Shown piece after piece: positions 2,801 through 23,195 of a stretch of 25,429 bases of DNA. The position numbers and the translations under genes were made by a program. Source of the stretch: Craspedostauros australis (taxonomy: Eukaryota); NCBI GenBank assembly GCA_030167865.1, contig JALAGF010002407.1, forward strand, positions 62,001 through 87,429, given 5' to 3'. The notes beneath the pieces are model-generated. The model was not told where the DNA came from, made no database searches, and saw only the letters and a program-made list of their open reading frames with translations. Numbering within the stretch: position 1 is the first letter of the stretch; each line of letters begins with the position of its first letter.

Positions 2801-3369
2801 CCCTCGCTTGCTCTCTTCGTGTTGGTATGAACACTCGACGACTCTTGATCGTACTGTGCGGATAGGAGTCCTATAGTATTATGGCACAGTCTAAGTGCTC
2901 GTCAGGGCGAAAGGTATGATCTCTCTCGATGTTTCTTGCTTGCGCCTTCTTCGCCAAGTGGCAATCCACCATGACAAGAAAGAAGACAGCCAAGACAGAA
3001 AATGATCGATCGTTTGTCGTGTCAACAACGTCCACGGTCACTCGTGACTGTTGGGTGCCTTGGTTGTTCGCCTGCGTTCCATTCTTGTTGAATCGCGGTT
3101 TCGACTTATTTAGTCCTCATAACAACTAGGTTTACGCAAATAGCAAGCATGAGCGAATAAATCAGCCCATTTCAATCATAAAATTATCTCACCCAAACTA
3201 GCCAAGTTATGAAGGGCATCACCACAAAAACAATGCGACGGCTCTGTGTTTGGAAAAGCACGGCTCCCACCACACATTGTGTGCAGCATCCACCCTTGCA
3301 TTTCGCATTGAACAGAGATACGAGCAGAGGGGAGAGAACGACCCAACATTACCACTCTCAGGCAGCAGT

Positions 3370-6237
3370 ATGAGGTGTCTGCGCACAGCAGCAGCAACAA
3401 CAACACATCGAGTCAGGCAGACGACGAAGCTCCGAGAATGGAAAACGTGCGTTCCCTGCTGCACTTCTGCTCGCTCTGCCGTTCGTGCTGACAATGGTGA
3501 AGATGATGCGTCGTCCTGTCGCGCCAATGGACACACACTAGAGTCGCCACATTCACAGGTGGCAAGATATGGATGGGCAAGTGCTCTCGGGAATGGATTC
3601 TCCATAATAGACCAACAGGGTGGAGGGAGATGGAGAATGGCGCTATTGCAACGAACATTCTCGACAACCGTGGATGACACCATGGATGGCACCATGGATG
3701 GCACCGCCAATGCCAACAGCGCGCAAGTTGGGTCGCTTTACGACAGCTGGATAGAAGACGTGAATTATATCCGCAGCCTGGGCGTGGGATCGTTCACGGA
3801 ATCCACCTGGCTGGACGTTGACAACCTCATCCGCACTTGGATCTTCGCCATGCCCGAATTCCAGCAACGCAGACCGACCAATGAGCAGCATGCGACACAG
3901 TTGGCCACGATGATGAATCTCATCTTTGCGCTGTTGGAACGGACGGCCATGGAACCCGCGGTGAGGCTTCCCAATCCTCCAGATGCACTCCAAGGCGTAT
4001 TGCAAACCTGGAACATCGTGTTCGCGCGTCAATGCAGAGGTCCCAGAGGCAGGTCGTCTGCATCGGTCGATGGCGTACCCATGCCTCTGGAAGTCTTCAA
4101 GACTGTCGACAGACTGCAGCAATCCTCAAACGGCGCCTTCTTCGTAGATCAGCAAGTGGTCACCAGCATTTTGGAAGTCATGTCCCTGACTTTCAAGCAT
4201 GGCATCATCAAAGATTCGAGACCAGGGATGGAGGTTGCGACGAACTTGCTCGTCGATATCACCGAGGCATCGCGGCATAACCCAGCCATCCAGCCCTCGC
4301 TGCGCACATTTGCGGCGTTTATGAACTGTTGCATCCACAGCAACTTGCCCAATGCGGTCGATTTGATGGACGAGGTGTATGCACAGCTAGAGAAAATGAA
4401 TCAGGAGGGTTGGGCTCATCTCAAACCCAACGACGTCATCTTCAATTTGCGTCTCAAGATGCATGTCGTTGCTGGTCAGCTAGAGACAGCAGAGGCGCTG
4501 CTCCATCAACATACGAGTATTCAGAGAACGTCAGACGATTACGACGGTATTGACTATGGTGGTGACTCCGATACCTTTCCGGATTGTATCTCATTCACCA
4601 CAGTCTTGGATGGTTATGCGACACCGTCCAAAGGCAGACGCAGTGACCCGACTCGTGCGCAAGGGCTCCTCTCCAGAATGCAGCAGCTCTACGAAGGCGG
4701 CAACGACTTGGTCAAGCCCAATCTCTTCAACTACACCACGGTCATCAAGGCGTGGGCGCTCGCGGGAAACTCTGCGCAAGCAGAGAGCATCTTCAACCTC
4801 CTGCGCGAGTATTCCAACGAGGATCCCGAATTGACGCCCGACACAGCCGTTCACAACACCTTGCTGCTGGCATACGCACGTGCGCGCCAACCAGAGAAGG
4901 CGCATGCGCTGCTCCTCTCCATGATTGGCGAAGACATGGTCGGATCCGAACAATCACAAGAAGCTCCGCACCGCACACGCGTGGCAATACCGGATCAACG
5001 ATCGTTCAACATCGTCATCGCGGCATGGGCGAAGCAGGGTAAGGCGGACATGGCAGAGGCAGTGCTGACGCTCATGCATGACTTGCATCGAGAAGGGAAG
5101 ACCGAATCCAAACCTGATGTGGTCTCGTATAATGCGGTTTTGGACGCATGGTCCCGATCCAAGGACAACGACGCGTGGAAACGTGTCGATGACATTCTGC
5201 AGCACATGCTGAAGAAGTACAGGAACGGTGACAAGTCCATCAAACCGACAATCGTCACGTTGAACTCCGTCATGAAGGGCTTTGCAAAGGCCGACAACTC
5301 AATCAGAGCAGAACGACTTCTAGACGTCATGTTGAATGATGGGGGGTCCTCAGATTTGCCAAAGCCGAACCTGAGGACGTGGAACACCGCCCTGTCATCA
5401 TGCTCCCGGCTAGGCAATGTCAACAGCGCCTCAAATATACTAGCGAAGATGCAGAGGAACTCCGTTGCGCCGGACATCATCACGTGCAACACCATGCTCG
5501 CCTGCCTCTCGCGAAACGGAACAAAGAAAGCGGCAGACCAGGCATTGAAATTCTACGTCAGCATCGTGCAGAACCACAACGTGGAGCCCGATCGAATTTC
5601 GTTTGAAACGCTGCTAGATGCCATCATCCATGGTGCGGATGTTGGTCAGGCCGAGGAGCTGATCTTGGAATTGTGCCGTGATCCATCGAAGTATACGCGT
5701 GTCAATCCCAACCTCGACATGTTCCACAAAGTTCTGCGAGGATGGGTGAACCAAGGATCTCCGAAACGAGCCGAGTCGTTGCTCCTCAAGATGATCGAGC
5801 TCTATGAGAATGGTCAGGAAGCCGTGAAGCCAAACCTCAACACGTACAATCGGGTTCTCAGTTGCTGGGCAAAGTCCAATGAGAAGTACAGCGGCGAACG
5901 TGCTCAACTCATCTTGCGCCAAATGAAGATGCTGGAGGCAGATGGCAAGACAGAAATGGCGCCGGACATCATCTCGTACAACACCGTCGTCAATGCGTGG
6001 GCCAACAGCATGGATCCAACTTCGCACCTTCAAATCGAGAGCTTGGTGTTGGAAATGATCATGGCAGGCCGCGAGAAGCTTATGCCGGATGCTGCGACGT
6101 ACGGATCGTGGTTGAAGGCGATTTCGAGGCATGAGGATGTGAAGGATCATGTGAAGGACGTCGTGAAGATGATGAAGGTGCACGATTTCTCACCTACTGG
6201 CTATCTCGAGAAACGAATCGCGGCGCTTTCCAAATAG
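3370..6237 (+). CDS. Pentatricopeptide-repeat (PPR) protein, ~955 aa, probably organelle (mitochondrion)-targeted
   Basis: About 15 tandem PPR motifs (e.g. KPNLFNYTTVIKAWA, KPDVVSYNAVLDAWS, APDIISYNTVVNAWA). The listed ORF starts at TTG 3250; the first in-frame ATG is 3370, giving an R/T/A-rich N-terminus (MRCLRTAAATTTHRVRQ) like a presequence. Confidence 0.9.
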   Translation: MRCLRTAAATTTHRVRQTTKLREWKTCVPCCTSARSAVRADNGEDDASSCRANGHTLESPHSQVARYGWASALGNGFSIIDQQGGGRWRMALLQRTFSTTVDDTMDGTMDGTANANSAQVGSLYDSWIEDVNYIRSLGVGSFTESTWLDVDNLIRTWIFAMPEFQQRRPTNEQHATQLATMMNLIFALLERTAMEPAVRLPNPPDALQGVLQTWNIVFARQCRGPRGRSSASVDGVPMPLEVFKTVDRLQQSSNGAFFVDQQVVTSILEVMSLTFKHGIIKDSRPGMEVATNLLVDITEASRHNPAIQPSLRTFAAFMNCCIHSNLPNAVDLMDEVYAQLEKMNQEGWAHLKPNDVIFNLRLKMHVVAGQLETAEALLHQHTSIQRTSDDYDGIDYGGDSDTFPDCISFTTVLDGYATPSKGRRSDPTRAQGLLSRMQQLYEGGNDLVKPNLFNYTTVIKAWALAGNSAQAESIFNLLREYSNEDPELTPDTAVHNTLLLAYARARQPEKAHALLLSMIGEDMVGSEQSQEAPHRTRVAIPDQRSFNIVIAAWAKQGKADMAEAVLTLMHDLHREGKTESKPDVVSYNAVLDAWSRSKDNDAWKRVDDILQHMLKKYRNGDKSIKPTIVTLNSVMKGFAKADNSIRAERLLDVMLNDGGSSDLPKPNLRTWNTALSSCSRLGNVNSASNILAKMQRNSVAPDIITCNTMLACLSRNGTKKAADQALKFYVSIVQNHNVEPDRISFETLLDAIIHGADVGQAEELILELCRDPSKYTRVNPNLDMFHKVLRGWVNQGSPKRAESLLLKMIELYENGQEAVKPNLNTYNRVLSCWAKSNEKYSGERAQLILRQMKMLEADGKTEMAPDIISYNTVVNAWANSMDPTSHLQIESLVLEMIMAGREKLMPDAATYGSWLKAISRHEDVKDHVKDVVKMMKVHDFSPTGYLEKRIAALSK
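3667..3705 (+). repeat. Short in-frame 12-bp tandem repeat (ACCATGGATGGC-like, T-M-D-G) in the PPR N-terminal region
   Basis: accgtggatgac accatggatggc accatggatggc acc. Confidence 0.7.
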
Positions 6238-6503: not shown

Positions 6504-8549
6504 TCACTTCTTGGCGTTCCTCTTCGGCAAGAAGAAGTTTTGGATTCCCGCCTTTCGCTTTCTTGGCGGTTGTGATCGGATCGAAGATTGCGATGAACGA
6601 ATGATCTTCGATTGCGTGCCAGATACCTTCTTCGACTGTCCCTGCGATGCTCCGCTCCCAAAAAAGGACATGATCGACCGTTGCGCCTTGTGAGGTTGTG
6701 CCAGCTTGGTCGCCTTGTCTGTTGCGTTCAATTCCAGATCCCTGCGAATGCAGTCATCGTCGAGCAGGACCGAGATCGCGATGTGATCCGAGAATGTCGG
6801 CGGCGTGTAGATCATGCCAGTGTGGGGGATCCCGAATTGGCTCTCCAACGCCTGTCTTGACGATTGCTGGATCCCCCCACCGTCGAAGGCAGCTGCTTGG
6901 AATTGACCATTCGCCGTCGCCGCGTTCAGAGCAGCGCTATCGCTGAAAGGATCTTCATCGTCAGGTCCGCAACATCTGGGATGCTCGACGTCTCCCTTCT
7001 GAACATTGGATCGCAGCGTTTCATCGACGAGGATGTAATCGATCCGACCTCCCTCGTTGAAGTAGCGCCGATTCTTGGACTGGTTCCAGCACGTGAATCG
7101 ACCCAACGCGCTGGGATAGAAGTGGCGGAAGGTGTCGACCATCTTGTCCTCCTCGATAAGTGCATTGAGCCAAGCGCGCGGCGGGGAGGCCTTGCTGATG
7201 CCTCCGATCGTATCCGCGATGTGTCGCTGCAGTTCGTCATCCCAACGGATGCCTGCTATCTTGAGCTGAAGCTCCGCCAAGGTATCCACGCATACTGCAT
7301 TTTTCTCCAGAGATATTCGCTCTTGATTCGTTTGTGGGCACACGTAACTTGATGCATCGAAGGCATACTGGTACAGACAGTAGTCCGGCAATGGTTCATG
7401 ATTGCCGAGGAAGACACGCTTTCGGAAAGTGTTTGTATTGTTCGTCTCTTCACCGCCGACGCCGTCGCTTGTGCTGACATGCACGGACATGCGATACCTC
7501 TCATACTTTTGATTCGTCATTGGATTCGTGGTTTGAGTCTTAACCACTTCCTGCGTTTTCAACGCGTCGGCGATTTTAGGCCACCCCTTTGCGACGTCCC
7601 GTTTCCATTGCTCCAGTTGTCCTCCTTTGCTTTTCTCATCGTTGGCGTCGTTGTTGGGATCGGCGATGCTGTCGCGATTGCTGCTATCATTGCCGTTGTC
7701 AATGTCACTGCTATTGTTGGGACGTTGACACTTTCTCACCGCAGCAACTTCATCCAGGATTTCATCCACGAGGACCAACCGATGCCTCCAAAATCGATCC
7801 AGCGGTCCGCGCGCGATGTTCAAATCGCCAGCAAGGATGACCTTCTTATTCAATACATCGCGCTGATGACGAATCGCATTGCGCAACGCGATGAGAAACT
7901 TCATGCGGAACGCCACTGGCTGCCCGCTGGCCGGGACGTAGACATTGAAGATGACGATGTCTCCATGATCCGTCATGACGCAACGACCGTGCCGATCCAG
8001 TTCTGCGTCGCCCAGCGGGTTGGAGTTGGCCGACACCACCATTCCTTGCCGCACGTACGTCATGGCGCCGTTCATGCCTTTCGCATTCTTGTCCGACAAG
8101 GAGTTGCAGCTCCAGAAGGACTCGTATCCCTCCACCACAGCGCAGCCTCTTGGTTCACATCGCGAGGATAGCTTGGAGCGCGGGATCTTGTGTTCCTGGA
8201 CGCAGAGGATGTCCACGTGGTGGCGCTTGAGGAAGTGAGCGATCGCAAGCGACGGTGCGGACTTTGTCTTCTTCGGCCTCTTCCTGCTGTTGATGCTGGG
8301 ATGGGTCTGTGATTGTGACTGCGATTGCGGCTGCGATTGAGACTGCGACTGTGTGTCATTGTCTGACTGCGAGAGATGGCCTCGGTCGGCATCATGTTCT
8401 GACGCAATCACGCTCGCATTGGTGTCTGCAACATGATGGAAGTTGATCTTGCTGCTGTCCTCCGCACCTTGAGCTTCTGAGAAGAACGCCTCATGGATGC
8501 GATCGGAGGTTGTGGAAAGACCCGCGACGTTCCAGGAGACGATCAACAT
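6504..8549 (-). CDS. APE2: Exonuclease III-family AP endonuclease, APE2/Apn2-like, ~681 aa
   Basis: Complete EEP catalytic motif set: MLIVSWNVAG, DILCVQEHK, FNVYVP, AGDLN, VDTFR..YP...FTCW, GRIDYILV, SDH. C-terminal PIP box QRSIMSFF is typical of APE2. Start placed at ATG 8549 because the family fold begins at M-x-I-V-S-W-N; an upstream in-frame ATG exists at 8687. Confidence 0.85.
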   Translation of the reverse strand: MLIVSWNVAGLSTTSDRIHEAFFSEAQGAEDSSKINFHHVADTNASVIASEHDADRGHLSQSDNDTQSQSQSQPQSQSQSQTHPSINSRKRPKKTKSAPSLAIAHFLKRHHVDILCVQEHKIPRSKLSSRCEPRGCAVVEGYESFWSCNSLSDKNAKGMNGAMTYVRQGMVVSANSNPLGDAELDRHGRCVMTDHGDIVIFNVYVPASGQPVAFRMKFLIALRNAIRHQRDVLNKKVILAGDLNIARGPLDRFWRHRLVLVDEILDEVAAVRKCQRPNNSSDIDNGNDSSNRDSIADPNNDANDEKSKGGQLEQWKRDVAKGWPKIADALKTQEVVKTQTTNPMTNQKYERYRMSVHVSTSDGVGGEETNNTNTFRKRVFLGNHEPLPDYCLYQYAFDASSYVCPQTNQERISLEKNAVCVDTLAELQLKIAGIRWDDELQRHIADTIGGISKASPPRAWLNALIEEDKMVDTFRHFYPSALGRFTCWNQSKNRRYFNEGGRIDYILVDETLRSNVQKGDVEHPRCCGPDDEDPFSDSAALNAATANGQFQAAAFDGGGIQQSSRQALESQFGIPHTGMIYTPPTFSDHIAISVLLDDDCIRRDLELNATDKATKLAQPHKAQRSIMSFFGSGASQGQSKKVSGTQSKIIRSSQSSIRSQPPRKRKAGIQNFFLPKRNAKK

Positions 8550-8843
8550 GGCGCATGCATGGGAATGTGTATCAACAAACGCTGTAGACCCCCTTGTGGA
8601 GTGGATGGAGTTGTGCAGAAGTGCAGAAACGCAACATTGAATCCGAAGGCGCCAAATTGAAGAATCAATGGGTCTATTCTCATGCACAGGCTATCATTGA
8701 GATCCCAACACGCAGCAGCTCGCATTGGAGAATGCAATCACTGCGACCTACTCGTAGCTCCATCCCACCAAATACTACACGTAACTTGTTTCGTTCATTT
8801 CCCTTCACTACACCACCATTGGGTTTCTCTCGAGAGGAAGAGA

Positions 8844-10349
8844 TTACGTTTTCTTTTGTTTCTGCTTCTTCTTGTCCTTCTTTTTCTTCAGCTTCTTCGC
8901 CTGCGATACCAGCTGCCTTGCCTTCTCCACCTCATTGGGGTCCATCATCTCCTTGGGGGTCTCCCTCCGCTTCTTCGATGATCGCTTGTCATCGCCGCTG
9001 ATCTCGCGTTTGTTTGATTTGTTCTTGCCATTCTCGTCATCGTCATCATTCTCGGCGTCGCTGTCGTTTTCATCATTGCTGTCCAGATCTCCGGGCACAA
9101 CGTCGATGTTCTCCTCGTCGGCACCGATGTCGGAAGCTTCTTCCGCCATGATACTATCATCGTACCAAACGGCCAGGGCGGTGATTCTGGCTCCAGTCCC
9201 CAACCGGACACTGTCAATGATGTCAACAGCAAGCTCTTCTTCCGCATCCTCGTCCTCATCGCTTTCATCTTCATCATCTCCTTCATTGCCATCTCCAGTA
9301 CCGCCTCGCTGTCTTCCATCCGCAGCTTCTGCATCAACGTCGTCTGCATCATCGCCCATCATCATGCGCACAGCTCCCGACAGATCCATGAGGCTGACCA
9401 CGCCGGCGCTGTTGGCCGTGACGACATGGTACCCGGAGGCATACGCGACGCACTTGAATCTTTCTTCTCCAGCAACCACGTTATCCACAGGCTCGATGGC
9501 CATGATGGCCCTTCTGTTTTCGTCGTTGCTGTCCTCCACCGCCAGCACCGGCAAGGAACCATCGTTGCAGGCAGCGACGACGAACAGGCCATCGGGGCCA
9601 GCCATGAGGCAAATTTGGTTTATCCGGCTTGGCAGATCGACGTCGAGCAGATCCTTGCCGGATGCAACCTCCCTGACGGTGATGTGCGCGCCGTACGCCA
9701 CGGCGTAGAAATTGCCATCTTCCGACCACACCATGCTGCTGACGGGGCTGTACTTGGTGCGCCCGCCACGCGTCGATACGGGATTGAGCTTGGCGACGAA
9801 GGCCAAGCGGCCCTTCGTGAGATCCCACAGCTTGAGCTTGCCATCCGCCATGCCGCCCGTCAAGGCCAGCTTGCCCGTCGGATGCACCGCCAGCGCACCC
9901 ACGCCGCCGTCATGACCGGCCAGAACATGCTGCACGGACCAATCTCGCTTCTTGTAAATCGCCAGCTTCCCCTCCGAAAAGCCGATGATACAATGCGTCG
10001 ATTTGCGGCGCGGCGGAGCGTACGAACTGCAGATGGGGGTGCCGAAATCGCTGGGCGTGCGGACCTCGCCCGACGACGTCATGCGCTTGTGCCACTCGTG
10101 CGTGCGCAGGGATTCATCGTAGCCCGACGACAGCAGGGAACCCGCGGCTGTCGAGGTGGGCGACGTCGTGAGGCTGAGGCTGCGCACGCTGCCGGAATGC
10201 ACGGACGTCGCAAACTCCAGCTGCAACGCCTTGCGGCCGCGGGAACCCTTCGTGCGTCGCTTGTCGGGTGCCTTCGTGGGGATCTTGAACTCCCATCCGG
10301 CCACAACGCCATCGTACGTTCCGGCTGCGATCGCGAGGGTGGACAGCAT
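8844..10349 (-). CDS. MAK11: WD40 protein, MAK11/PAK1IP1-like 60S ribosome biogenesis factor, 501 aa
   Basis: N-terminal IAAGTYDG..GW; GHDGGVGALAVHPTGKLALTG...KLWDLTKGRLAF and C-terminal TGARITALAV match family hallmarks; acidic tracts and a Lys-rich nucleolar-type tail. Confidence 0.8.
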   Translation of the reverse strand: MLSTLAIAAGTYDGVVAGWEFKIPTKAPDKRRTKGSRGRKALQLEFATSVHSGSVRSLSLTTSPTSTAAGSLLSSGYDESLRTHEWHKRMTSSGEVRTPSDFGTPICSSYAPPRRKSTHCIIGFSEGKLAIYKKRDWSVQHVLAGHDGGVGALAVHPTGKLALTGGMADGKLKLWDLTKGRLAFVAKLNPVSTRGGRTKYSPVSSMVWSEDGNFYAVAYGAHITVREVASGKDLLDVDLPSRINQICLMAGPDGLFVVAACNDGSLPVLAVEDSNDENRRAIMAIEPVDNVVAGEERFKCVAYASGYHVVTANSAGVVSLMDLSGAVRMMMGDDADDVDAEAADGRQRGGTGDGNEGDDEDESDEDEDAEEELAVDIIDSVRLGTGARITALAVWYDDSIMAEEASDIGADEENIDVVPGDLDSNDENDSDAENDDDDENGKNKSNKREISGDDKRSSKKRRETPKEMMDPNEVEKARQLVSQAKKLKKKKDKKKQKQKKT

Positions 10350-10399
10350 GTTGCGAGCGCGTGCGAGCGTGTGCGAGTGCTTGTTTGCCTTAGACCAAT

Positions 10400-10429
10400 C
10401 TACTCTGCTCTATTCTACTCTATTCTACA
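10400..10429. repeat. Degenerate pentanucleotide repeat (CTAYT)n upstream of the WD40 gene
   Basis: ctact ctgct ctatt ctact ctatt ctaca. Confidence 0.6.
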
Positions 10430-12447
10430 CATTCCTTTGTTCACCAACCTCCAGAGATGACGCTGATGTCCAAGCTGATGTTGACGCTGATACTTGGAGC
10501 ATGAATGTCGATGCCATTCCAACCAGCGCTACGAGCGCACATCATCCAATCGAAGACAGATCCTCTTTCGTTGGTTGCGACAGCGTGAGGCTTTGTGTTT
10601 GTTGGCGTTCGAATCCCCATTTCGGGAAACGAGAAGCAGGAACTTTTTGGTTGGTTGTGGTTGAACAGTACAAGAGCCTAATAGAAATAACAAAACGTGA
10701 TGTGCGACAAGTCGTGGTTCGATCACAAGGAGAGATGCGCGAATGCAAAGGGACTTGATGACGTCATGACAAAAGAAAGGAACGCGCACAGGCTTGCGGA
10801 CAAGAGTGACGCATCCGATAGATATGAAAGACGTTATTGTGAACGTTTCCCCACAATGACACAGAGCCCTACGGGCTCGCGTAAAAAACTGAATTTCCAA
10901 AATGTATGACTGGCTGTCTCGCACCGTGTTGTTCTGAGTTCGGTTGGGCCATCTTGCGTCATGCGGACCGGCCGTTCCAAGCAAAGTTCGGCCAATGATG
11001 AGGGTAGTTTGTGGGTTGGCACGCTGATTGGTTGCCGTTCGGGAGTTTTTTTTTCTGCGTGGGCGCCGCGTCTTTCTTCTGCTTTGTGCCCTTGGTCATG
11101 TCTGTGTCGTGGTTTGGTTGCACGAGGAATGGAGTTGCGTGGTTGAGACCTCGCGGATAATACGAAAAGTCGCGCCGTTGCCGTGGCGGCAAAAATGCGA
11201 CCGACCCTGTGTGCGGGCAAGAGCAAGCATGGCGGTTCGGCAACAACAAGAAGAGGTCCAACAAAAGGCGAAAAGCCATCAGAGAGCCAACAAGCGAGTG
11301 ACTGCATCGTTGAGTACGCGTACATCCTCCACGAATCGGTACAAACTGGAACATCACAGCAGAAACTTCGCAGCCTTTGTGTTCATTGGCGCGAACGGCT
11401 GGAACAACAACAAAGACAAAAACGCAACCAAACACGAACAGTATCCTGTGCCACTCCTTGCTGTGTGCCGATGCTCACCAGTGTTTACTCGCACAACAAC
11501 AACATCAACAACAAAAGCAAGACCAAGAACAACACAAGCCTTGGCATCAGCATCAGCATCAGTTTCATAGCAAAGCTCACGACCAAGACCAACACGAAGT
11601 CCTCATCCACAACAAGAGGAACGAAACGGCATCGTCAGACCAACCCTTACTGGCACCAAGCACGCGAACAAACAAGCAACCGACAAAAGGAGGAAAGAAG
11701 CAAAAGCAGGCCTCAGCTCAAGCTTCCGTTCTGTTGCTCATTGATACACGCACACACCAATACACACCAACACACAACGATACACCATCAAGACGCTGCC
11801 TTGATCAGTAGCTCGTATCATACCAAGCAGACTCCGACAAGGCTCGTGTTCCGTTGTATTATTCATCTTCGCCCAACAGTGTAGAAGGTGACTCGGTGCT
11901 GCAGACATAGTCGCACCAGTAATCGCAACAGCCACAAGTCCCAGAGCAGTCATTGCATTGACCCTTAGCAACACAGCTCGCAGGTCGCGGAAGCCCTTTC
12001 GTGCAACCAAGACAGCAATAGCAATAGAGTAGCAGCAGCAGCAGCAGCAACTGGCCACAATCTGAACTCGAAACGTGGAGATCAAAGAGAGTGCCACCGG
12101 ACAAACGCCAACGACACGACGCAGCAAGGCAAAAGCAAAAGAGAACAGAAAGCAACGGAAACCGCAGAGCGGCCAGGAATCGTGCGAGTTTCGCTCTTGC
12201 AACGTTGGAACAAATCTTCGACAGCAACAGCGATACTGACAATTCTCAACCTTTCCCATCTCTCTTCAAGGCAGTACGAACGAAAGCCTTCGCGATTCAG
12301 ATCGTGCGCGTTTGATCCCAGAGCACCACCCACGAACTGCCTCGACCCGCGGTCTGTGCGCATCGTGCAACCACCACCGCAATAGCATTCTCGACTATCC
12401 ATCGTGAGGGGAACAGCAGAAGCAACCCAAGGAGCAAACACACCAAC

Positions 12448-14346
12448 ATGAGGTTCCAACTGGACCAAGGCCGCGCCAACGGTGGCAGCAACGGTGGCAA
12501 CAGCAGAAGACACTGCCATGCGCAACGGCAATACTACAGGCAGCATCAGAGACAGCACGTGCCGGATGAGTCTTCCACTGACGAGGAATCCACCATGGTC
12601 AACACACCTTTGATGCCAATGTCCCAAGCATCGCAGCCTGCGGCTCCGGCCGAACGAAACATCATGCAACACTCATACGGCTTGCGCGAGGGTACCACCG
12701 CATTCTTACCAACCACCAACGTCAACTTCGACGACAGTTGCAGTTCTGGCGACTGCATCAGCATCACCAGCAGCAGCAGCGACAGTCAACTCAGTTGCCC
12801 ATCCACGGACGAGGCCATCTCCCAGCCGCTTCACCATGCCCAACACAGCTACCGTCAACACCAACAGCAACACCAACAGCGCCACCAATCCAATACGCGT
12901 AAACAGAGATCCACTTCGTTAGATGTGCTTGCGTACGCAGCTACGGCGGCGCAATCACACCAGCAACTGCACTCGCTGGCCCATCAACCAACTCAGGATC
13001 CTAGCAGATGGTTGGCCCGCGAGGATAGCCTTGACTACTCATACGATACCGACACGCTCAAGCACGATGCTAAATGCATCCCCCGGATTGGTACCACCGC
13101 AACCAACAATAACAACAACATGGATGCCAATGATCCAGGCATCGACCATGCAGAGGCATTGAACGCGCTTTGGCGCATACTCTTCCAGAGGTCTCCAAGG
13201 TCAAAGACGTCGCCCTCAATGCTGTCCCTGTCCTCAGCGTCACCACCATCATCATCATCATCGCAGGCGGGCAAAACAACCAGATTCCGACTGCCGGCCA
13301 CCAGGGTCATGCGAATTATAGGCATCACCATGCTTGCGTGGATGTGCATCGCGTTCTGCATCATGTTCCAATGCACAGGTTGGCTCACGCAGATCGGCAT
13401 GCTCGACGCCACCACCATCAGGCTCGGTCAGAAGGTCCTGCAAAGGTCGTCCGGTTCGAAGACAGCCGTCACCATGGGTTCTCCGCTGGTGCGCTCCACC
13501 ATCCCCTTGCCGCTCCCCAAACAGAAGGTTTCTGTCATCCTCATGAACTACAGCCGACCGCGCATGATCCGCGACTCCTCCATGATGCGGACGCTTCTGT
13601 CACATCCCAGCATCGACGAGGTCCTCCTCCTGCACTCCAACCGAAAGACCGCGTTCGAGTTCGACCACCCCAAGGTCGTCAACATCGATGCAATCGAGGA
13701 GAACGAAGAGATGGGACTCAGCCTGCGCTTCTACTTCTGCCAGCTGGCCAAGAATGATTGGGTCCTGCACCTCGACGACGACATGGAGTTCACGTCTGCC
13801 GCTCTCGATGAGATGCTCATCGAGTACGGTCGCAACCCACGCCGCATCGTCGGTCGGTTCGGAAGGAACCTGCAGCTCGAGGATCCCACCAACACCTTCA
13901 ACGGCTACAGCTCCACCAGCACGCACAAGTCAAGCGAAGTCGTCCTCACCAAGCTCATGGTCATGGAGCGCGAGACATGCAGCTCATTCTTCCAGTACTC
14001 GCATCTGCTGTGGGACGACGTCGTCCTGCACGACGGCGAAGGTCCGCTGTGGAACGGGGAGGACATCTTCATGTCCCTCGTCGCGAATCACATCTACGGT
14101 CCACCGGCCGATGGCCGTCCCTTCAACAACTACGCCATGGATTGGCTCGACGTCTGGCAAGCCGATGATTCGCTCAAGGACTACAACAACGGAAAGCTGG
14201 ATATCAGCGGCGGCCTCAAAGGACTCAACCTCCTCGACTGGAAGTGGTGGCAGACGCTCTTCCGCCGCAACCGGCATTACTCGTACCGCGGCCAGCTCTG
14301 GCAAACCGCCAAGGAGCGATTGGCTGGTCTCGTTGAACCCAAGTAA
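12448..14346 (+). CDS. Glycosyltransferase family 64 (EXTL2-like) type II membrane protein, up to 632 aa
   Basis: Single TM (IIGITMLAWMCIAFCIMF) followed by GT64 motifs VSVILMNYSR, LSLRF, WVLHLDDD (DxD), IVGRFGR, VVLTK, NGEDIFMS. Long low-complexity N-terminus; true start uncertain. Confidence 0.8.
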   Translation: MRFQLDQGRANGGSNGGNSRRHCHAQRQYYRQHQRQHVPDESSTDEESTMVNTPLMPMSQASQPAAPAERNIMQHSYGLREGTTAFLPTTNVNFDDSCSSGDCISITSSSSDSQLSCPSTDEAISQPLHHAQHSYRQHQQQHQQRHQSNTRKQRSTSLDVLAYAATAAQSHQQLHSLAHQPTQDPSRWLAREDSLDYSYDTDTLKHDAKCIPRIGTTATNNNNNMDANDPGIDHAEALNALWRILFQRSPRSKTSPSMLSLSSASPPSSSSSQAGKTTRFRLPATRVMRIIGITMLAWMCIAFCIMFQCTGWLTQIGMLDATTIRLGQKVLQRSSGSKTAVTMGSPLVRSTIPLPLPKQKVSVILMNYSRPRMIRDSSMMRTLLSHPSIDEVLLLHSNRKTAFEFDHPKVVNIDAIEENEEMGLSLRFYFCQLAKNDWVLHLDDDMEFTSAALDEMLIEYGRNPRRIVGRFGRNLQLEDPTNTFNGYSSTSTHKSSEVVLTKLMVMERETCSSFFQYSHLLWDDVVLHDGEGPLWNGEDIFMSLVANHIYGPPADGRPFNNYAMDWLDVWQADDSLKDYNNGKLDISGGLKGLNLLDWKWWQTLFRRNRHYSYRGQLWQTAKERLAGLVEPK

Positions 14347-14946: not shown

Positions 14947-15911
14947 TCAGTTCTTGCTCTTCGACCTGCAAAACACACGACCATCTTCATCCAAAGTAAT
15001 CTGAAAGGCTTCCGCATCCAGAGGCTTGTCGCCATCCGTCGCGGTCTTGGCCAATCCGTTGACGAATCCGGCCAATCCCTTGCGTTTCAATTGCGGACCC
15101 AACCGTCCTGTGCGCATCGAGTACGTCGTGCCGCAGGTCGGGCAGGCAATGCGTGGCGTCTCCTCCCATGCGGGATCATCCAGGCCGATCAAATCACCCT
15201 TCCACAGGTCGAACGCGCAACGCGGGCACTCGCCTTGGATGGCGTAGAAGGCGCCTTCGACGTTGGCGCATGCCATCGTGACTTTCTCACCGAATTCCCA
15301 GCCTTTGACGGAACCTGTTGTGCATCGTGTCGCGTTGAGAGGTTGGGTCATGTTTTTGGGATTGTGTGTGAGTGATTTGAGGGGTGAGCACAAGTATGCA
15401 CGTAGTTCATTTCATGATTCGTGAGTGTCAACATAGTAAGAGCGATCCAAACAGGATGGAGGAATGAATGTTAGCCCATGCACATCAACATTCAACAAAT
15501 GGAAGCCATGCCGGGATGATGCATATGACCACATAGAATAGTGGGATGGCATGTCAACCCACACCCACACCGGCACAAGCCAAGCTTCTGGAGTCTTGGT
15601 TTCTCTTGCATCGCGCTCTTGCATCATGCTCGTACCGCGAAGAGGAACAATTCTGCCGTACCTTCGGCTGGGAGAGTAACTCCCGTGATTTCCTGTCCCT
15701 TGCCCCGATTCATCGCATTGACACTTGAGTTGGACTTTTTGCTGGAGACGGATTCGCCGGACAGAGTTTTCTTGAGCTTGCCCTTGCCTCGTCGTCCCAT
15801 CATGACGAGCGAGAATGCGTGGCATTGCTGCACTTGCTGTGCCAGCTGCACCACCACCAGAACTGCGAGCAGCGATAGGCACAGCGACAGCGTTCGAGAT
15901 TGAGATCGCAT
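14947..15911 (-). CDS. Plastid-targeted Rieske-ferredoxin-fold protein with CxxC-x24-CxxC ligands; two exons, complement(join(14947..15314,15662..15911)), 205 aa
   Basis: Exon 1 encodes a signal peptide (LSLCLSLLAVLVVV...CHA|FS, ASAFAP-like with Phe at +1) and a basic transit peptide. A phase-1 GT-AG intron joins GAA G|GT TCC in frame to exon 2: NVEGAFYAIQGECPRC..DLWKG.L...IACPTCGTTYSMRTG...FQITLDEDGRVFC. Confidence 0.8.
15315..15661 (-). other. Spliceosomal GT-AG intron, 347 bp
   Basis: Donor GAAG|GTACGG at 15661 and acceptor CAACAG|GT at 15315, with a CTCAAC branch-like sequence ~20 nt upstream of the acceptor. Removal joins two ORFs in frame into one coherent protein. Confidence 0.75.
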
Positions 15912-16356
15912 GATTCTCGTTTTATTTGAAGTCACTCGATCGAGGGGTTGGACTGAAGGTGTCGCCTGGAGGGATCGTGGACGCCTTCGTTGTATGGAAG
16001 CGTTGTATGCTACTTGTATGGTTCTCTGCTGCAGCCCTCGATAGTGGACAAATGGAATGAAAGACTACAACAAAGCCAACAAAGCCAACAAACAACAACG
16101 ACGACGTCAAAGAGATGAGGTGTGTCACGATCATGGGAGGTGCGTTGTCCACGAAAGACGAGAAACCGTCATCTTGGTGGAACGCTTGTGTTGAACTTGT
16201 CGGAGTGACGTAATCCGTGAATGAAAGTCCAGGGAATCCCGAGTAATGACGACGAAATCCAAACCACAAACCACAAACCAAACAAGGCGAACGAATGCAC
16301 ACGAACACACCCACCAACCCATCGGTGGACATCTGCAGACAACATCCATACTCTCA

Positions 16357-16382: not shown

Positions 16383-16536
16383 AGAGGAACAGAGTGACAG
16401 CGAGTGTATCCGTATCGTAGATTAGAGGACAGCCCCACAGCAGCCTCATCAACAGCAGCAAGTGTGCAGAGCAGTCAAAAAGACAAAGTCGTCGTTGTTC
16501 GCGTTCGCAGTACAATCACACCCTTCATCACCAACC

Positions 16537-17607
16537 ATGAACAGAATCCTTTCGCCTGCTTCGGCAAGGTCATTGTGGACGCAATCGCAGCCGCTGGCTC
16601 GAAGGCTTCAAGCATCGCCTTGTGCTTCGCTGTCATCGTCCACAAGAACCGCCAGCACCACAAGCAGCAACGGTCAGGATTCATCACCAGCATCGGCATA
16701 TATTTCGGGCGACACTACCCATTTCGGATTCGAAAACGTGGGCGTCGACGAAAAGGAAGGCAAGGTCCGCGAAGTCTTCGAGAATGTCGCTGATTCCTAC
16801 GACGTCATGAATGACTTCATGAGCGCTGGATTGCATCGGGTGTGGAAGGATTACTTGTTGGACTTGTCTTCAGTTCGATCCATGGCGCAAGTCGTCAACC
16901 AGCAACAGCAGCAGCAACACAGTGTCACCAATGACGCGACCGCGAGCATTCCGCTCAATCTCAAGATACTGGATGTGGCCGGTGGGACCGGTGATGTGGC
17001 ATTTCGATTTGTGGACGCAGCAGGATTGGCAGGGCAGCAGCAGCAACTGCAACAGGAACCACAAGGGCAGGTGCAGGACGACCCGCCGATCTCAATTACT
17101 GTCTGCGACATCAATGCCGAAATGCTTCGCGTCGGCGAGAAGCGCGCAAGGGAGAAGTACGGATCGCACCTGCTCGACACCACGAAGGGCCTTGCCTTCG
17201 TGCAGGGCAACGCGCAAGATCTGCACCAGTTCGAAGACAACACATTCGATCTCTACACCATCGCATTTGGGCTGCGCAATGTCACGGACGTCGACAAAGG
17301 ACTACGCGAGGCATGCAGAGTGCTGAAGCCCGGTGGCAGATTCATGTGTCTGGAGTTCTCGCAAGTTCCTAACCCCATGTTCCGTCAAATCTACGATCTC
17401 TACTCCTTCAACGTCATCCCGCAGATGGGACAGTTCGTCGCTCACGACCGTGATTCGTACCAGTACCTCGTCGAGAGCATCCGCAAGTTCCCCCCGCAGG
17501 ACGAACTCAAGCAGAGAATGACGAACGCAGGTTTCCAAATGTCAAAGTATACCAACCTGACGGGAGGCATCGTCGCCATCCACGAAGGCTGGAAACCGCT
17601 GGAATGA
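16537..17607 (+). CDS. COQ5: Ubiquinone biosynthesis C-methyltransferase COQ5 (UbiE family), mitochondrial, 356 aa
   Basis: THFGF..V...EK..KV..VFENVA.SYDVMND.MS.GLHR.WKD, LDVAGGTGD, DIN..ML..G, FDLYTIAFGLRNVT, LKPGGRF.CLEFS, SYQYLVESIR.FP, NLTGGIVAIH.G.K. First ATG is 16537, followed by an S/R/A-rich presequence. Confidence 0.95.
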   Translation: MNRILSPASARSLWTQSQPLARRLQASPCASLSSSTRTASTTSSNGQDSSPASAYISGDTTHFGFENVGVDEKEGKVREVFENVADSYDVMNDFMSAGLHRVWKDYLLDLSSVRSMAQVVNQQQQQQHSVTNDATASIPLNLKILDVAGGTGDVAFRFVDAAGLAGQQQQLQQEPQGQVQDDPPISITVCDINAEMLRVGEKRAREKYGSHLLDTTKGLAFVQGNAQDLHQFEDNTFDLYTIAFGLRNVTDVDKGLREACRVLKPGGRFMCLEFSQVPNPMFRQIYDLYSFNVIPQMGQFVAHDRDSYQYLVESIRKFPPQDELKQRMTNAGFQMSKYTNLTGGIVAIHEGWKPLE

Positions 17608-17985: not shown

Positions 17986-20900
17986 TCAACCTGAGTTGTC
18001 TGTCAACACCGACACGTTGTCACTATCGTCGTCATCGTTGTGAACGGCTTGACTCCTGTTGCCATCGTCGCCACCTCCGGTTCTGCCTTTGTCAAACGCT
18101 GTGCCAGTCGTGTTCGATTTCGAAGCTGACGTGTGCGTACGGCCTTCAATACCGTTGCCAGCGCTGTTCTTGGAACGCGTGTCGGTTGGACTTGGGCGTG
18201 GCACAATCTCAAAGCCTGCGAGATTTGTCGGCGACGCAATGCCAAGCACTTCTGCGATGGTCTGGTTGCGATGGTTCCAGGCCGCCAGCTTTGAATTCGG
18301 CCTGCCATCATCGTATGCCGTGGTCACGAACTGCCCACGTCGTTTCTTGATGTCATCCACCTTGATCTTGCAGCCCCAGGCTGCGTAGTGCTCGACTGCG
18401 TTGTTGAAGTGGTCGCCGACCATGTCTGCCGCGTCATGCAGCATGCAGTGCTCCCCCGCGAGTTCGTACGCAAGGGCTGTGTCATTGATGCATGTGGATT
18501 GCGTGGCGGAGATGATCGCCAGGTTGTATGCGTGCTGTATTTTGGAATGACGCTTGTTCTTGATGGTGATCGAGAGCTCCTCTGCTTCGAGCAACAATGC
18601 CTGGTGGATCCAGTTGCGCCCTCTGGTCTTGCCGAGATGGCGTAACGCCTTGATAGATTTGCGCAGGGTCGTTAGGTAGCGACTGCTGCCGGTCTCCCTG
18701 TATCTTCCTGCCGAGATCAAGCCCGACAAGTACGGCATCATTATCAAAGGAAAATATGATGGATCCTTCGGAGCGAAGATGCGGAAGCATTTGTACAAGC
18801 GTTCCGCGGTTATATATCGGCGATCGTGGATCGAAAGGCAAATCCGACTGTAGAAGTGGACCGAATTTCGGCCGTCTTGGGTTGGATCCAATGACTCCTC
18901 GTCGATACCTATCTTGGCCTCAGCCTCGAATTCTTCCCATAGGACTGGCTCGTCTCCGGCCAGCCACTGCAGCAGGGGCAGCGTTTCCTTCACCATCTCG
19001 ATGTGCGAGAAGACTTCGTATGTGATGTGTTGTTGAGTGGTTGCATGCGTTGCTTCGATCAGTTGCCTCAGCTCAAAACCAATAACGAACGCGAATCCAA
19101 GGCAAATGTGTAGGTTCAACAGCCCCATCTCAAACTCTCCAACTTCCATGGACTCGTGATGACCTTGTTGGCAGCGTCGCAGCAACTTTGTGAAAGGGAC
19201 GCTGAACGATGAGATGCAATTGACAACGAGAATGGAAACAAGGCCTCTCTTCGACTTTCCATTGATTCTATCAAGGATCGCGGATGCAATATCTGCACCA
19301 CGCTGCCCCATGGCCTGGTCTCCCATCATGCTCTTAATTAGACCATAGTCGGCAAATGCGCTTGCCGATTCCTCACAAACACCATGCTGAATGGTTCTGA
19401 GAATCATCTTGCAGAGGTTGAATACCATCAATATTGCTTTGTTGGTAATGTGGCAACAAAAGCCAAAGTCAGCACAGATCTTCATGGCGTAGATCTTCTT
19501 GGGGTCTGTCATCAATGGCATCGACACGATCTCATCGTTGGTATGGTTCTTCATGAAAGTATTGATCTTCAACAATGATCGCACGATACGCACAGCATAC
19601 CATCGCTTCGGGAACTCATTCAGCGCTCGTAGTGCCTGCTTATCCATTCTTCGGGCGTCCGCATGACGATGCTCCCTGCCCAGCGCCTTTGCCATCACAT
19701 AGTATGTGGGGAGCTTGTCCTCGAACGACCGAGCTCTCTCCACCACTTCCTTGCCAAGATCGTACCCGGCCTCGAAGCGGTTCAGCGATAGTTCAACGTC
19801 GCAGCGAGCGCGGTACAGCCGCAGACATGCGTCATAGTGGTCTTCGTTGTCCCACGCTGACGAAGTATTGGCTTGGTGGGTCGTGATGGTGGTGGCGGCG
19901 ACGACGGTGGTAAGCTTGGAACTCTTCACCAGACGTAAGGCAACGGATGCGTTTCCCAAGTATTCAGATGCCGATTCCAGAGCTCCCATTTGCAACGCCT
20001 TCTCGCCGACCTCGAGGTTCATCATGACGGTGAACATGTGATCCTTGGTCTGAACGGCGTTGAGATGATCGGCTGCCACGAACAGCAGGCCATCAGTCGC
20101 ATCGGGCCCCAAAGATGCTGATACTGATGATGGTATTGGTGCTTCAGTCGATAAGTCGGAGCTTGTTGCTTTCGATGGTACGCCAACGTTTTGTGGCGGT
20201 CGATGGCGCTGCTGACTTGAGGCTTTGGTCATCTTCGGACGATTCTTCTTGTGGATGCGGTCTTTGCCATCGCTCTCCTTGGCGGCGTCTTGTCCCTTTG
20301 CATCTTGATGTGGATTTGGACGTTGATGCTCTTCGTCGTGCAGCGAGCTCCGATACTTCTCCAGCAAGCAGTGACCGATGCGCAATCGTAGCTTGTCGCG
20401 GGTCTCACCGGGTGGGATCATGCCGTACGCGGCCTGCTGGATACGATCATGTGCGAAGTGATACATGGCGCCACCGATGGGATTGATTATCAAGCGTTCC
20501 AGCACGGCCTGTTCCAGCACATCGGATAGTGCTGGCGCGTTGGCAACGACGCCCGCTGTATCAGTTGCAGTATCGACCACGCCGTCAACATGGGCTTGCT
20601 CATTCTGCAGCACATGTTGTAGGATGGAAACATGGAAGGCTGATCCGATGTATGCCGCAACGGCCAATACTCTTTGCAACAGTAGCGGGAGCTCCTCGAG
20701 CTTGAATTTGATGACATGGACGATGCTGTGACTGATGGGAAGGTCGGCACTGCGGACGCTGCCGTCACCGTCGATATCACCCTTGCCTCCTTGGTTTGGA
20801 ATCTTCTATTCCCACTGGGCCGATGCCTGGTTGTACGTGAGAATGTTCTTCCTCTCCAGCTCTTCCAACGCCTGCATCGTGAAGAAGATGTTGCCATTGG

Positions 20901-22239
20901 TCTTGGCGTGCAGCTTCCTTGAGAGGATGTCGATGTCTTGACAAGGCAGCAAGGTTGTGAGCCATGCAGTCATGTCTGGTAGCGACAGGTTGGTGATGGT
21001 GACGTGCTGGAGTGTGCGATGACGTTGTTGCCGCTGGTGACGACCGGCTCCATCAACTTGAGATGCAGGTGCAAATCGTTGCAAGAAAGATGTCGACAGT
21101 GGATGGTCCGATGGCAGCTCCAGTACTTCATCGTTGTGCGGACTCGTGTCCTGCCGAATGGCACCCAGTAGAAGGAAGCTCTTCAGCTCTGTATCTTCAA
21201 CTAGATTCGCCAGCAGGCGCAAAGCCACGCTGGATGACCATTGCAGATCGTCCAGGAACATGTAGATGGGGCGTTCCTTGGTGGAGACGGCCTTGATGAA
21301 CTGCAGGAAGATGTACTGTAGCTGATTCCACGAGCTGTCGCCTAGCAGCTGGGTTGATGTCGACATTGACAACGACGATGAACCGCCGATTCGGTTCTGA
21401 CTGTTGCTCATGCTTGCCGTGCTGCTGCCGACTTCGATGTCGTGGCTGGTGCGACCTCGTCGGAGTGTCGAATGATGTGTCACAGATCCATCCTCACGCA
21501 CCGTTGCGTTTGGCGAAAGGATGGAAAGGGCCGGCACCACATTGATCAACGGATCGAATCCATCGGTCGGGAAGACCGCTTTGACGCACTGGCGGACCCG
21601 ATCGAGCTCCTCTTGCTGTCCGCGCTTGAGCTGAGATGTGAAATCGCGCATAGCCTGCGCGATGGCGGAGAATGGATCGCTGCTGCCATTGTACTCGTCG
21701 TGCTTGCCACGCAGCACGTAGCAGCAAGTGCAGGTGCGGGCTTGCGACTTGGTTGGTTGTTGTGTCGCTGTTGTCGCTTGTTGCTGGTCGGCGAGGTCAT
21801 CTTTTGGCTGTGCATTGCATGTGCAGCACGTCTGCAGGAAGTGATCGATCAGAGCTGACTTTCCTGTCCCGCTGATGCCCCAGACCAGCACGGCAGGGTA
21901 CGCAGTTGACTTGGCGTCCCTCGATTTCGATGCTCCAATGACTTGGTTGTTGACGTCATGGAGCTGCTGCAGTTCGTGTTGCCTGCCAAGAAAGCACGCG
22001 GATGATCGCCAGGAGGCCGTGTCATTTGATCGTCGCCGTTTGCTGCCTGGATCAGATGGATTGGCGAGGTCATCGGCGGTGGAAGGAGGAGGCGGCATGA
22101 TGCCCTGATGATTACTGCCACTTGACTCGGTCTTCACGTCTCCATTGTTGCTAATGATATCAGCGAGCATGGTGGGATCGTGTAAGAGTTCAGTTGCCTG
22201 CACGGTTTGAATCGTTGCGGAGTCCATTGTCGGCGACAT
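17986..22239 (-). pseudogene. Large COG3899-type (AAA_16/STAND) ATPase with helical/TPR-like C-terminus, ~1417 codons, interrupted by one in-frame TAG at 20806-20808
   Basis: Walker A VLVWGISGTGKS, Walker B MFLDDLQWS, TNGNIFF, YHFAHDRIQQAAY, ALAYELAGE..HYAAWG..KV. The two listed ORFs (20806..22239 and 17986..20679) share a frame and the 42 codons between them are open. Could be a nonsense allele, an assembly error or recoding. Confidence 0.7.
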
Positions 22240-23195
22240 GGGGGATGGTGACTGTGATGGCTGTGGGAAATGTGAAGCGTCGTGTGTCCTTGATCTGAAC
22301 TGGACTCGGGCTCATCCACCGAGTATGAATGAAGGAAAGAATGTGGGCTCGATGAGATTGTGGCACGAGATACTTTCTTCTTGCGATTTGGTTGTGTGTG
22401 CGATGTTGTTGTTGCGGTGGGGTGCTGGTATGGAGTCTGCACTGACACTGTCCCCTGTAAGATGATGGCCTCGAAAGATGTGATCTTGCTGGTGACAGTA
22501 CAATACACATCTGGGTCCCGCACTCGGTAGTGGATGACTGGAGCGGTTCAATCTCCTTTCCTTCTGTATGGCAATCGGAGGGGTTTGAGGCGGCGATCGG
22601 CATCTCAGCTGTGTCCTGTCTTTCTGCACACTCATTGACACGCTCCAATTTCGCCTCTCAGTCCAACGGCAACAAAGAGACACCATCCGTCACAAAGACC
22701 GAACAACCACGCTTTTGGCGCGAATTGGTTAGCACTCCCGTCCCGCCGCAAGTTTGCTCGTGGCTGCAGCTCGTACCCTCTCTCAAACCGAGGAGAAGCT
22801 CGATGGTTTGGAGCGACATGTGATTGTAAGAAAGAGAAACGCGTCGATACCGTTTCCGTCGAGGTGGGTCATGGGGACCGTTCACTGTTTCGAAACGAAA
22901 CAACTGGTTTCTCCTCTCCTCCTTGCAGAACTGGTGACCAAGGAGTATAATGCCGCTCCGCCATGATGGCGATGCGATGTGCTCTTTGCCGCACAGAGGG
23001 GTGCCCTGCCAGCGAAACCGAGGTGTGCGCTGACATGGGTACGAACTGTGTTTGCACTCTTGGACACAAACCGGGATATGTATGAAACCGTTGAAACGGC
23101 GTTACACGATAGCCGCCACTACCAATCATGGACGACACAGCAATGAGACAACAGCACTGACGCATACGACATCGATAAGACTCATAATCTGCATC

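Follow-up and report, generated by a model that had tools for sequence, protein, structure and literature searches.

A conserved diatom protein with a predicted Rieske fold, cysteine at all four ligand positions and a putative plastid address

A stretch of 25,429 nucleotides from Craspedostauros australis (GenBank assembly GCA_030167865.1, contig JALAGF010002407.1, positions 62,001 to 87,429 of the forward strand; this whole stretch is the window) contains a two-exon gene on the minus strand whose product of 205 residues is predicted to fold like a Rieske-type ferredoxin and has cysteines in place of both histidine ligands. Exon 1 (15662..15911, minus strand, 250 nt) encodes residues 1-83 and the first base of codon 84, beginning at an ATG (15911-15909) that is the first one downstream of an upstream in-frame stop, and exon 2 (14947..15314, minus strand) encodes residues 84-205 followed by a TGA stop at 14949-14947. 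Between them lies a phase-1 GT..AG intron of 347 nt (15315..15661, minus strand), which begins GTACGG, ends AACAG and has a G+C content of 0.48 against 0.57 in the exons. Exon 2 holds the bulk of the Rieske-fold domain, the start of which, at about residue 70 (15704), is still within exon 1. The frame of exon 1 reaches a stop 12 codons inside the intron (open reading frame (ORF) 15624..16064) and that of exon 2 is closed upstream at 15411; as the exons stand in different frames, both closed on the intron side, splicing is required to join them. The spliced translation, scripted from these coordinates, was 100% identical over its 205 residues to a protein in our collection of relatives, P0003, which bears the source name of an MMETSP1442 'Craspedosta...' peptide. 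We take MMETSP records to be transcriptome assemblies, and P0003 hence to be derived from a transcriptome; its letter-for-letter identity with the spliced product confirms the junction at 15662^15314, exactly where a preliminary description of this DNA had placed it.

The domain carries two CxxC motifs in the ligand regions. Box 1 is C113-P-R-C116 (15217..15228, minus strand) and box 2 is C141-P-T-C144 (15133..15144, minus strand), with 24 residues separating them, so that both the positions (15133-15228) and the spacing given in the preliminary description were reproduced. Where the Rieske ligand signature would read C-x-H and C-x-x-H, these boxes read CPRC and CPTC. The sole histidine of the protein is H31, inside the predicted signal peptide, and residues 33-205 are therefore without histidine. 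The register of box 1, in which the cysteines are invariant, was taken from ungapped profile hidden Markov model (HMM) alignments to BphA3, BphF and other Rieske ferredoxins, in which C-P-R-C lies over C-T-H-G; its first Cys aligns with the Cys of the Rieske CxH, and its second falls one residue past the Rieske His. Box 2, represented in these alignments by C-P-L-C over C-S-L-H, is colinear with the Rieske CxxH, with Cys replacing His. Compared with these ferredoxins, the inter-box loop has about 7 additional residues.

Relatives were numerous. Scanning 1.84 billion cluster representatives by HMMER, with the single sequence as query, returned 73 proteins at E<=0.001, and word-indexed searches returned 227 with the single sequence, 402 with a profile and 88 with a paralogue as query. 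The pool that we analysed consisted of 311 fetched proteins aligned to the family HMM, of which 308 matched, the other three being long and repetitive; 273 of the 308 span both boxes, and the remaining 35 fragments were set aside. Cys occupies all four ligand columns in 271 of these 273 homologues and His occurs at a ligand column in none of the 273, bearing out the expectation that the cysteines, and not histidines, would be conserved. The two exceptions (P0179 and P0188) lack box 1 in an otherwise collinear sequence and look like faulty gene models rather than true ligand loss; two further members (P0290 and P0310) run into unrelated sequence after a first exon-like part and look like unspliced or frameshifted gene predictions. 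An alignment of 42 sequences reaching down to 22% identity had only the four Cys and one Gly as invariant columns, and in an alignment that included the N-terminus and reached down to 17% identity the sole invariant columns were the four Cys, one Gly and one Pro. Judged from these alignments, the conservation of the four Cys is not due to chance. Of the 273 proteins bearing a CxxC..CxxC pattern, 208 have their boxes 23-24 residues apart.

A FastTree phylogeny of 262 domain sequences resolved two deep clades. The clade with the gene in the window contains 187 sequences, mostly with CPRC/CPTC, and the second contains 75 sequences with CP[QSK]C/CD[FL]C (support 0.997; the paralogue set P0181 and P0229-P0313). 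Both clades keep the four Cys and both are present in Nitzschia inconspicua and in Cylindrotheca fusiformis, and for these reasons the Cys4 pattern must be older than a gene duplication. A third group of proteins (P0142-like, with KAWEL and CPLCGTTY) was seen in diatom-dominated ESM Atlas clusters. All members with an organism name are diatoms, most members being nameless, and the ESM Atlas clusters point to Bacillariophyta. A scan of prokaryotes with a narrow alignment, which was pattern-based and blind to His-bearing ancestors, gave 90 stretches at 10 loci, with matches spanning 12-52 residues around the boxes. The two of these ten loci that were inspected were rejected as relatives, having no Rieske-like ORF: L001 encodes a membrane-anchored CxxC..CxxC protein and L009 a multi-zinc-finger protein, presumably McsA-like. 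No informative domain fusion was found among the relatives examined, a set that leaves out the 'longer' length class, and four long matches (P0174, P0178, P0184 and P0191) were dismissed as fusions because they were repetitive junk.

The Rieske fold of residues ~70-205 is well supported by prediction, through the Pfam matches of the family, the profile matches to Protein Data Bank (PDB) sequences, the AlphaFold2 models and Foldseek. Within the 42 aligned members, 23 matched Pfam Rieske and 20 matched Rieske_2 at E<=0.1, with best member E-values of 1.2e-6 and 5.3e-9 respectively, and two relatives carry a precomputed PF13806 label. The family profile, searched against PDB sequences, had Rieske-type proteins as all of the best 10 of its 19 matches (E 0.0036-0.22), and a second family profile had them as the best 11 of 14. 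These proteins were reached in PDB sequences by the family profile only, exon 2 as a single sequence giving noise there (a designed zinc finger and a nanobody). Given the family alignment, AlphaFold2 modelled exon 2 with a predicted local distance difference test (pLDDT) of 90.7 and a predicted template modelling score (pTM) of 0.83; the full-length model had a pLDDT of 84.1, with block means of 91-97 over residues 71-200 and values >90 for the Rieske domain. The leading Foldseek matches of both models in the PDB were all Rieske-fold proteins and mostly Rieske-type ferredoxins, led by CarAc, TodB and BphA3, the ferredoxins of carbazole, toluene and biphenyl dioxygenases. Template modelling scores by target (TMt) were 0.66-0.76 for the exon-2 model, and the full-length model gave 21 matches at E<=0.001 with TMt up to 0.82 (3gce), at sequence identities of 11-20% to the structural matches. 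The proposed Rieske-type ferredoxin scaffold is thus what the models recover. The highest score by query (TMq 0.68) belonged to 8jng, a Rieske-fold chain of the Porphyridium megacomplex of phycobilisome, photosystems II and I and light-harvesting complex (PBS-PSII-PSI-LHC), which the profile matched at E 0.035.

Compared with the Rieske-type ferredoxins of bacterial multicomponent oxygenases (CarAc, 1vck/2de5; BphA3/BphF, 2e4p/1fqt; TodB, 3dqy; 5bok; 3gce), the predicted structure has the same fold (TMt 0.66-0.82). Both are soluble single domains, of ~100-110 residues in the ferredoxins versus ~137 here, and they have in common the scaffold motifs LP.G, G..YA...C, L..G and C..(H/C)...F....G, together with the first Cys of each box. 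Unlike those ferredoxins, the protein in the window has both His replaced by Cys, its box 1 changed from CxH to CxxC with a one-residue shift and its inter-box loop lengthened, and it is eukaryotic with a predicted plastid address. A family-specific helix (residues 164-175, GLAGFVNGLAKT; 15040..15075, minus strand; H80-92 in exon-2 numbering) is placed by AlphaFold2 between box 2 and the last two strands with a block pLDDT of 91-95, and is kept in the family consensus as 'GxxGxVGGLAKxAT'. It is the single helix of the domain, is followed by two strands only, the protein ending at residue 205, and falls in a stretch without Rieske sequence match in the profile alignments, where we presume the Pro loop of canonical Rieske proteins to lie. 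The protein is, by these predictions, folded like a Rieske-type ferredoxin, and the residues in its boxes mark it as functionally not a Rieske [2Fe-2S] protein.

The N-terminus has the features of a bipartite plastid leader. Residues 1-32 (15816..15911, minus strand) read as an endoplasmic reticulum (ER)-type signal peptide with a hydrophobic core (Kyte-Doolittle 3.3 over 10 residues), modelled by AlphaFold2 as a helix at residues 5-32 and ending ...CHA|F, with predicted cleavage at A32/F33 and an aromatic residue at +1. Residues 33-68 (15708..15815, minus strand) form a transit-peptide-like region that is basic, Ser/Thr-rich and predicted to be disordered (pLDDT 53-61, low confidence), with 8 Lys plus Arg, 1 Asp plus Glu and 9 Ser plus Thr in 36 residues and an isoelectric point of 11.3; it holds the conserved motif MMGRRGKGKLKK. 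This arrangement of a core, A32|F33 and a basic, hydroxylated, acid-poor stretch resembles the presequences for import into complex red-type plastids, in which a signal peptide is followed by a canonical FAP, FXXP or (F/Y)XXP motif (PMC3774753). Among 219 relatives with a Met start and at least 75 residues before box 1, 185 had a hydrophobic core, and in 150 of these 185 an [AGSC]F pair came right after it (mean 46 and maximum 58 in 200 shuffles); most of the 34 core-less relatives begin at an internal Met and seem to be truncated. The diatom-type leader claimed for the precursor was therefore found both in the protein itself and across its relatives, and we infer plastid targeting and a stromal location. 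Just ahead of the domain, 88 of 224 relatives have S-[LMIV]-N-x-G-x-G-Q-E, which resembles the transit-peptide cleavage consensus (Ala/Ser at -3 and Leu at -2; PMC3774753), and any exact cleavage point placed there would be a guess. A search of the Thalassiosira pseudonana N-terminome supplement with three peptide motifs from Thalassiosira orthologues matched 0 files.

A basic glycine motif, F-x-L-V-M-M-G-R-R-G-K-G-x-L-K-K, stands directly past the predicted signal-peptide cleavage site, within residues 33-68, and occurs in a loose form in 152 of 224 relatives, the second clade included. A transit peptide is not usually conserved to this degree, and the region comes out as disordered in the model.

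None of the known groups with comparable features accommodated the protein. Rubredoxins, among them the membrane-anchored plastid RBD1/RubA, likewise have two CxxC knuckles 23-27 residues apart, and in them, as in the family, each second Cys is followed by a small residue and position +2 of box 1 is aromatic; CPRCAF here corresponds to CTVCGY of rubredoxin, and CPTCG to CPLCG, with C-P-x-C-G in box 2 (PMC9400863). In the diatom protein, unlike in rubredoxin, the knuckles would be set in a Rieske beta-sandwich, and there is neither the rubredoxin fold of ~50 residues nor a membrane anchor. With no Pfam rubredoxin match even at E<=10, and with the predicted Rieske fold, membership among rubredoxins was rejected as far as the fold goes; an NCBIfam 'rubrerythrin-like' match was sub-threshold (E 0.029, 14.1 bits against a cut-off of 32). 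Zinc-ribbon profiles gave no match above cut-off, the best being Zn_ribbon_PaaD (E 0.0045, 17 bits against a cut-off of 27) and the others weaker. PSB33/TEF5/LIL8, PSB33-like proteins and NirD are, like the protein described here, plastid or bacterial Rieske-fold proteins that depart from canonical Rieske proteins (PMC12164590, PMC8003979). PSB33/TEF5 has no metal ligands and one or two C-terminal transmembrane helices (PMC12164590), whereas the diatom family has four invariant Cys and no transmembrane helix; the green-algal and cyanobacterial 'PSB33-like' protein keeps CxH/CxxH (PMC8003979), in contrast to Cys4 here; and NirD, structures of which are among the fold neighbours, is without ligands.

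The closest precedent for the boxes is an engineered one. In the Rieske-type ferredoxin ARF of Sulfolobus solfataricus, according to a review (PMC2946596), the substitution H64C alone gave a low-potential 3Cys-1His [2Fe-2S] cluster, H44C gave no cluster assembly, cluster assembly was largely lost in the double mutant H44C/H64C, and the triple mutant H44I/K45C/H64C (Iwasaki et al. 2005) bound a single metal, its site holding Fe/Zn. This triple mutant and the diatom family agree in scaffold and in ligand pattern, namely a CxxC reaching one residue past the His position and a CxxC colinear with CxxH; the mutant is a laboratory design and the diatom family is natural and conserved, with a longer loop and other residues around the site. 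Because the motif register matches that of the triple mutant (PMC2946596), a mononuclear tetrathiolate site is favoured, and we consider it probable. The spacing of 23-24 residues in the family is also near the 27 of rubredoxin (PMC9400863).

The reading that we prefer, tentatively and at a little less than even chance, is that of a plastid one-electron carrier on a Rieske scaffold with a rubredoxin-type mononuclear Fe(Cys)4 centre. The precursor would enter the ER through its signal peptide, would be imported into the plastid stroma through the Phe at +1 and the basic, hydroxylated transit region, and would mature to a soluble Rieske-fold protein of ~137 residues. Both loops of the Rieske cluster subdomain would be retained, with both His ligands lost and a CxxC in each loop, and the four thiolates would hold one metal ion at the tip of the domain in an M(Cys)4 site of the rubredoxin/zinc-ribbon type and not a Rieske [2Fe-2S] cluster. 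With iron in that site the protein would act as a small stromal one-electron carrier, presumably passing its electron to a stromal partner. As to the metal, we lean towards redox-active iron because the fold descends from that of electron carriers and the site is strictly kept, and towards zinc because of base rates for such knuckles; iron is put tentatively ahead of zinc, and neither of them reaches an even chance. To the extent that sequence and structure prediction can speak to it, the earlier interpretation of the protein as a Rieske/rubredoxin intermediate is supported.

Several observations weigh against this preferred reading. Natural tetrathiolate knuckle pairs bind zinc far more often than iron. 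The AlphaFold2 models are metal-free, the leader survey used a heuristic of our own and no trained predictor, and the E-values of the family profile against PDB sequences are marginal (0.002-0.02). The protein in the window itself falls below the cut-offs of Rieske PF00355 (13.6 bits, E 0.066, cut-off 20.3) and Rieske_2 PF13806 (15.2 bits, E 0.02, cut-off 27) and matches zinc-ribbon models equally weakly; its NCBIfam matches to HcaC and NirD are similarly weak. The engineered precedent is an archaeal protein made in Escherichia coli, and its inter-box loop is ~7 residues shorter than that of the diatom protein. All-Cys peptides derived from Rieske proteins assembled a ferredoxin-like [2Fe-2S] cluster in vitro (PMC9400863), and rubredoxin C42A assembled a [2Fe-2S] cluster (PMC2946596).

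The most serious competitor, which we nevertheless regard as unlikely, is that the Cys4 centre holds a structural zinc ion that only stabilises the loops, the protein being a non-redox adaptor or regulatory subunit in the manner of NirD or PSB33/TEF5. Zinc is the usual metal at C-P-x-C-G knuckles. Box 2 is such a knuckle, sub-threshold matches to many zinc-ribbon models of Pfam and NCBIfam (E 0.0045-0.5) are centred on it, and the structural neighbours include the cluster-less NirD (3c0d and 4aiv) as well as the Rieske-fold subunit of the red-algal PBS-PSII-PSI-LHC complex in 8jng (TMq 0.68). The Fe/Zn occupancy of the engineered site (PMC2946596) also speaks for zinc, and PSB33/TEF5 illustrates that a Rieske-like domain without cofactor can serve as a photosystem-associated factor (PMC12164590). 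The cluster-less PSB33 type simply lost its ligands (PMC12164590), however, whereas the four Cys of the diatom family are strict across two deep clades; the nearest structures are those of electron-carrier ferredoxins, and an adaptor role would have to do without a PSB33-like transmembrane helix and without a known partner.

A further alternative keeps the cluster and changes its ligands, making the protein an all-Cys [2Fe-2S] ferredoxin on a Rieske scaffold with plant-type ligation and a potential below that of a Rieske centre. The fold and the loop positions are those of a [2Fe-2S] site, and ARF H64C, rubredoxin C42A (both PMC2946596) and the linear CCCC peptides derived from Rieske proteins (PMC9400863) all formed [2Fe-2S] clusters; yet the all-Cys double mutant of ARF was largely cluster-less and its CxxC/CxxC version held a single metal (PMC2946596), and the +1 shift of the second Cys of box 1 is the register of a rubredoxin knuckle and not of a Rieske site, so that we rate the all-Cys cluster as improbable. 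Less probable again, to the point of being a distant outsider, is a metal-free thiol switch, in which the two CxxC pairs would cycle between dithiol and disulfide, or release zinc on oxidation, in stromal redox sensing or relay. CxxC is the classical redox-active dithiol motif, the predicted location is the plastid, where thiol regulation is widespread, and the diatom orthologues have two further Cys (C99 and C199), but the paired CxxC knuckles, the invariant Gly and the small residues that follow the second Cys of each box have the look of a metal site, and no similarity to thioredoxin-fold proteins was found in Pfam or among the PDB matches of Foldseek.

Functional linkage of neighbours is not expected at a eukaryotic nuclear locus. 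The gene lies head-to-head with a COQ5/UbiE methyltransferase gene (16426-17604, plus strand, Pfam E 8.7e-83; first Met at ~16537), the two ATGs being ~626 bp apart. The methyltransferase has an Arg/Ser-rich N-terminus and poly-Gln runs and no signal peptide, which suggests that it is mitochondrial rather than plastid; as it is without a signal peptide, we draw no functional link between the two. On the plus strand, the window also contains a long ORF for a pentatricopeptide-repeat (PPR) protein (3202-6234, PPR_2 E 5e-36) and a glycosyltransferase family 64 (GT64) domain (12316-14343, E 4e-13). On the minus strand there are an endonuclease/exonuclease/phosphatase domain (6507-8690, E 2.4e-11), WD40 repeats (8847-10409, E 5e-12) and two long ORFs (17989-22311) that abut at 20805/20806, the upstream one an AAA_16 ATPase (E 3.6e-17) and the downstream one of 939 residues without a Pfam match; these two may be one gene split by a stop or a short intron.

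Full-text searches, in a library with few subscription journals and hence with room for a mention in some omics table, turned up no account of a natural Rieske-fold family with all-Cys ligands, nor of the diatom protein itself. The orthologues carry the database labels 'Rieske domain-containing protein' and 'nitrite reductase/ring-hydroxylating ferredoxin subunit', which hide the ligand change and suggest a [2Fe-2S] cluster, although Rieske-type binding of such a cluster is impossible for this sequence. By its conserved residues and its models, the family is best described as a natural, conserved and putatively plastid Cys4 form of the Rieske fold, and hence as a variant of a known fold. That diatoms evolved a natural rubredoxin-type Fe(Cys)4 carrier on the scaffold of a Rieske ferredoxin, and kept it in at least two paralogous lines, is a bolder proposition that we advance as a doubtful one.

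How ligand type and spacing relate to the metal centre on a Rieske scaffold has so far been addressed by mutagenesis (PMC2946596). A conserved natural CxxC/CxxC family would show the same course to have been followed in evolution, and would offer a ready protein for spectroscopy. If the Fe(Cys)4 carrier is real, it would be the natural counterpart of the ARF triple mutant, a one-iron, sulfide-free plastid carrier for which Fe-S cluster assembly would not be needed; its potential would differ widely from that of a Rieske centre, and it might serve as an iron-sparing device. For diatom biology the family adds a conserved, putatively plastid protein that probably has a metal centre. Occupation of that centre by one Fe or Zn would bear on iron economy in organisms of iron-poor seas, and docking on photosystems, a habit of other Rieske-like proteins, would make the protein a candidate assembly or regulation factor of the red lineage.

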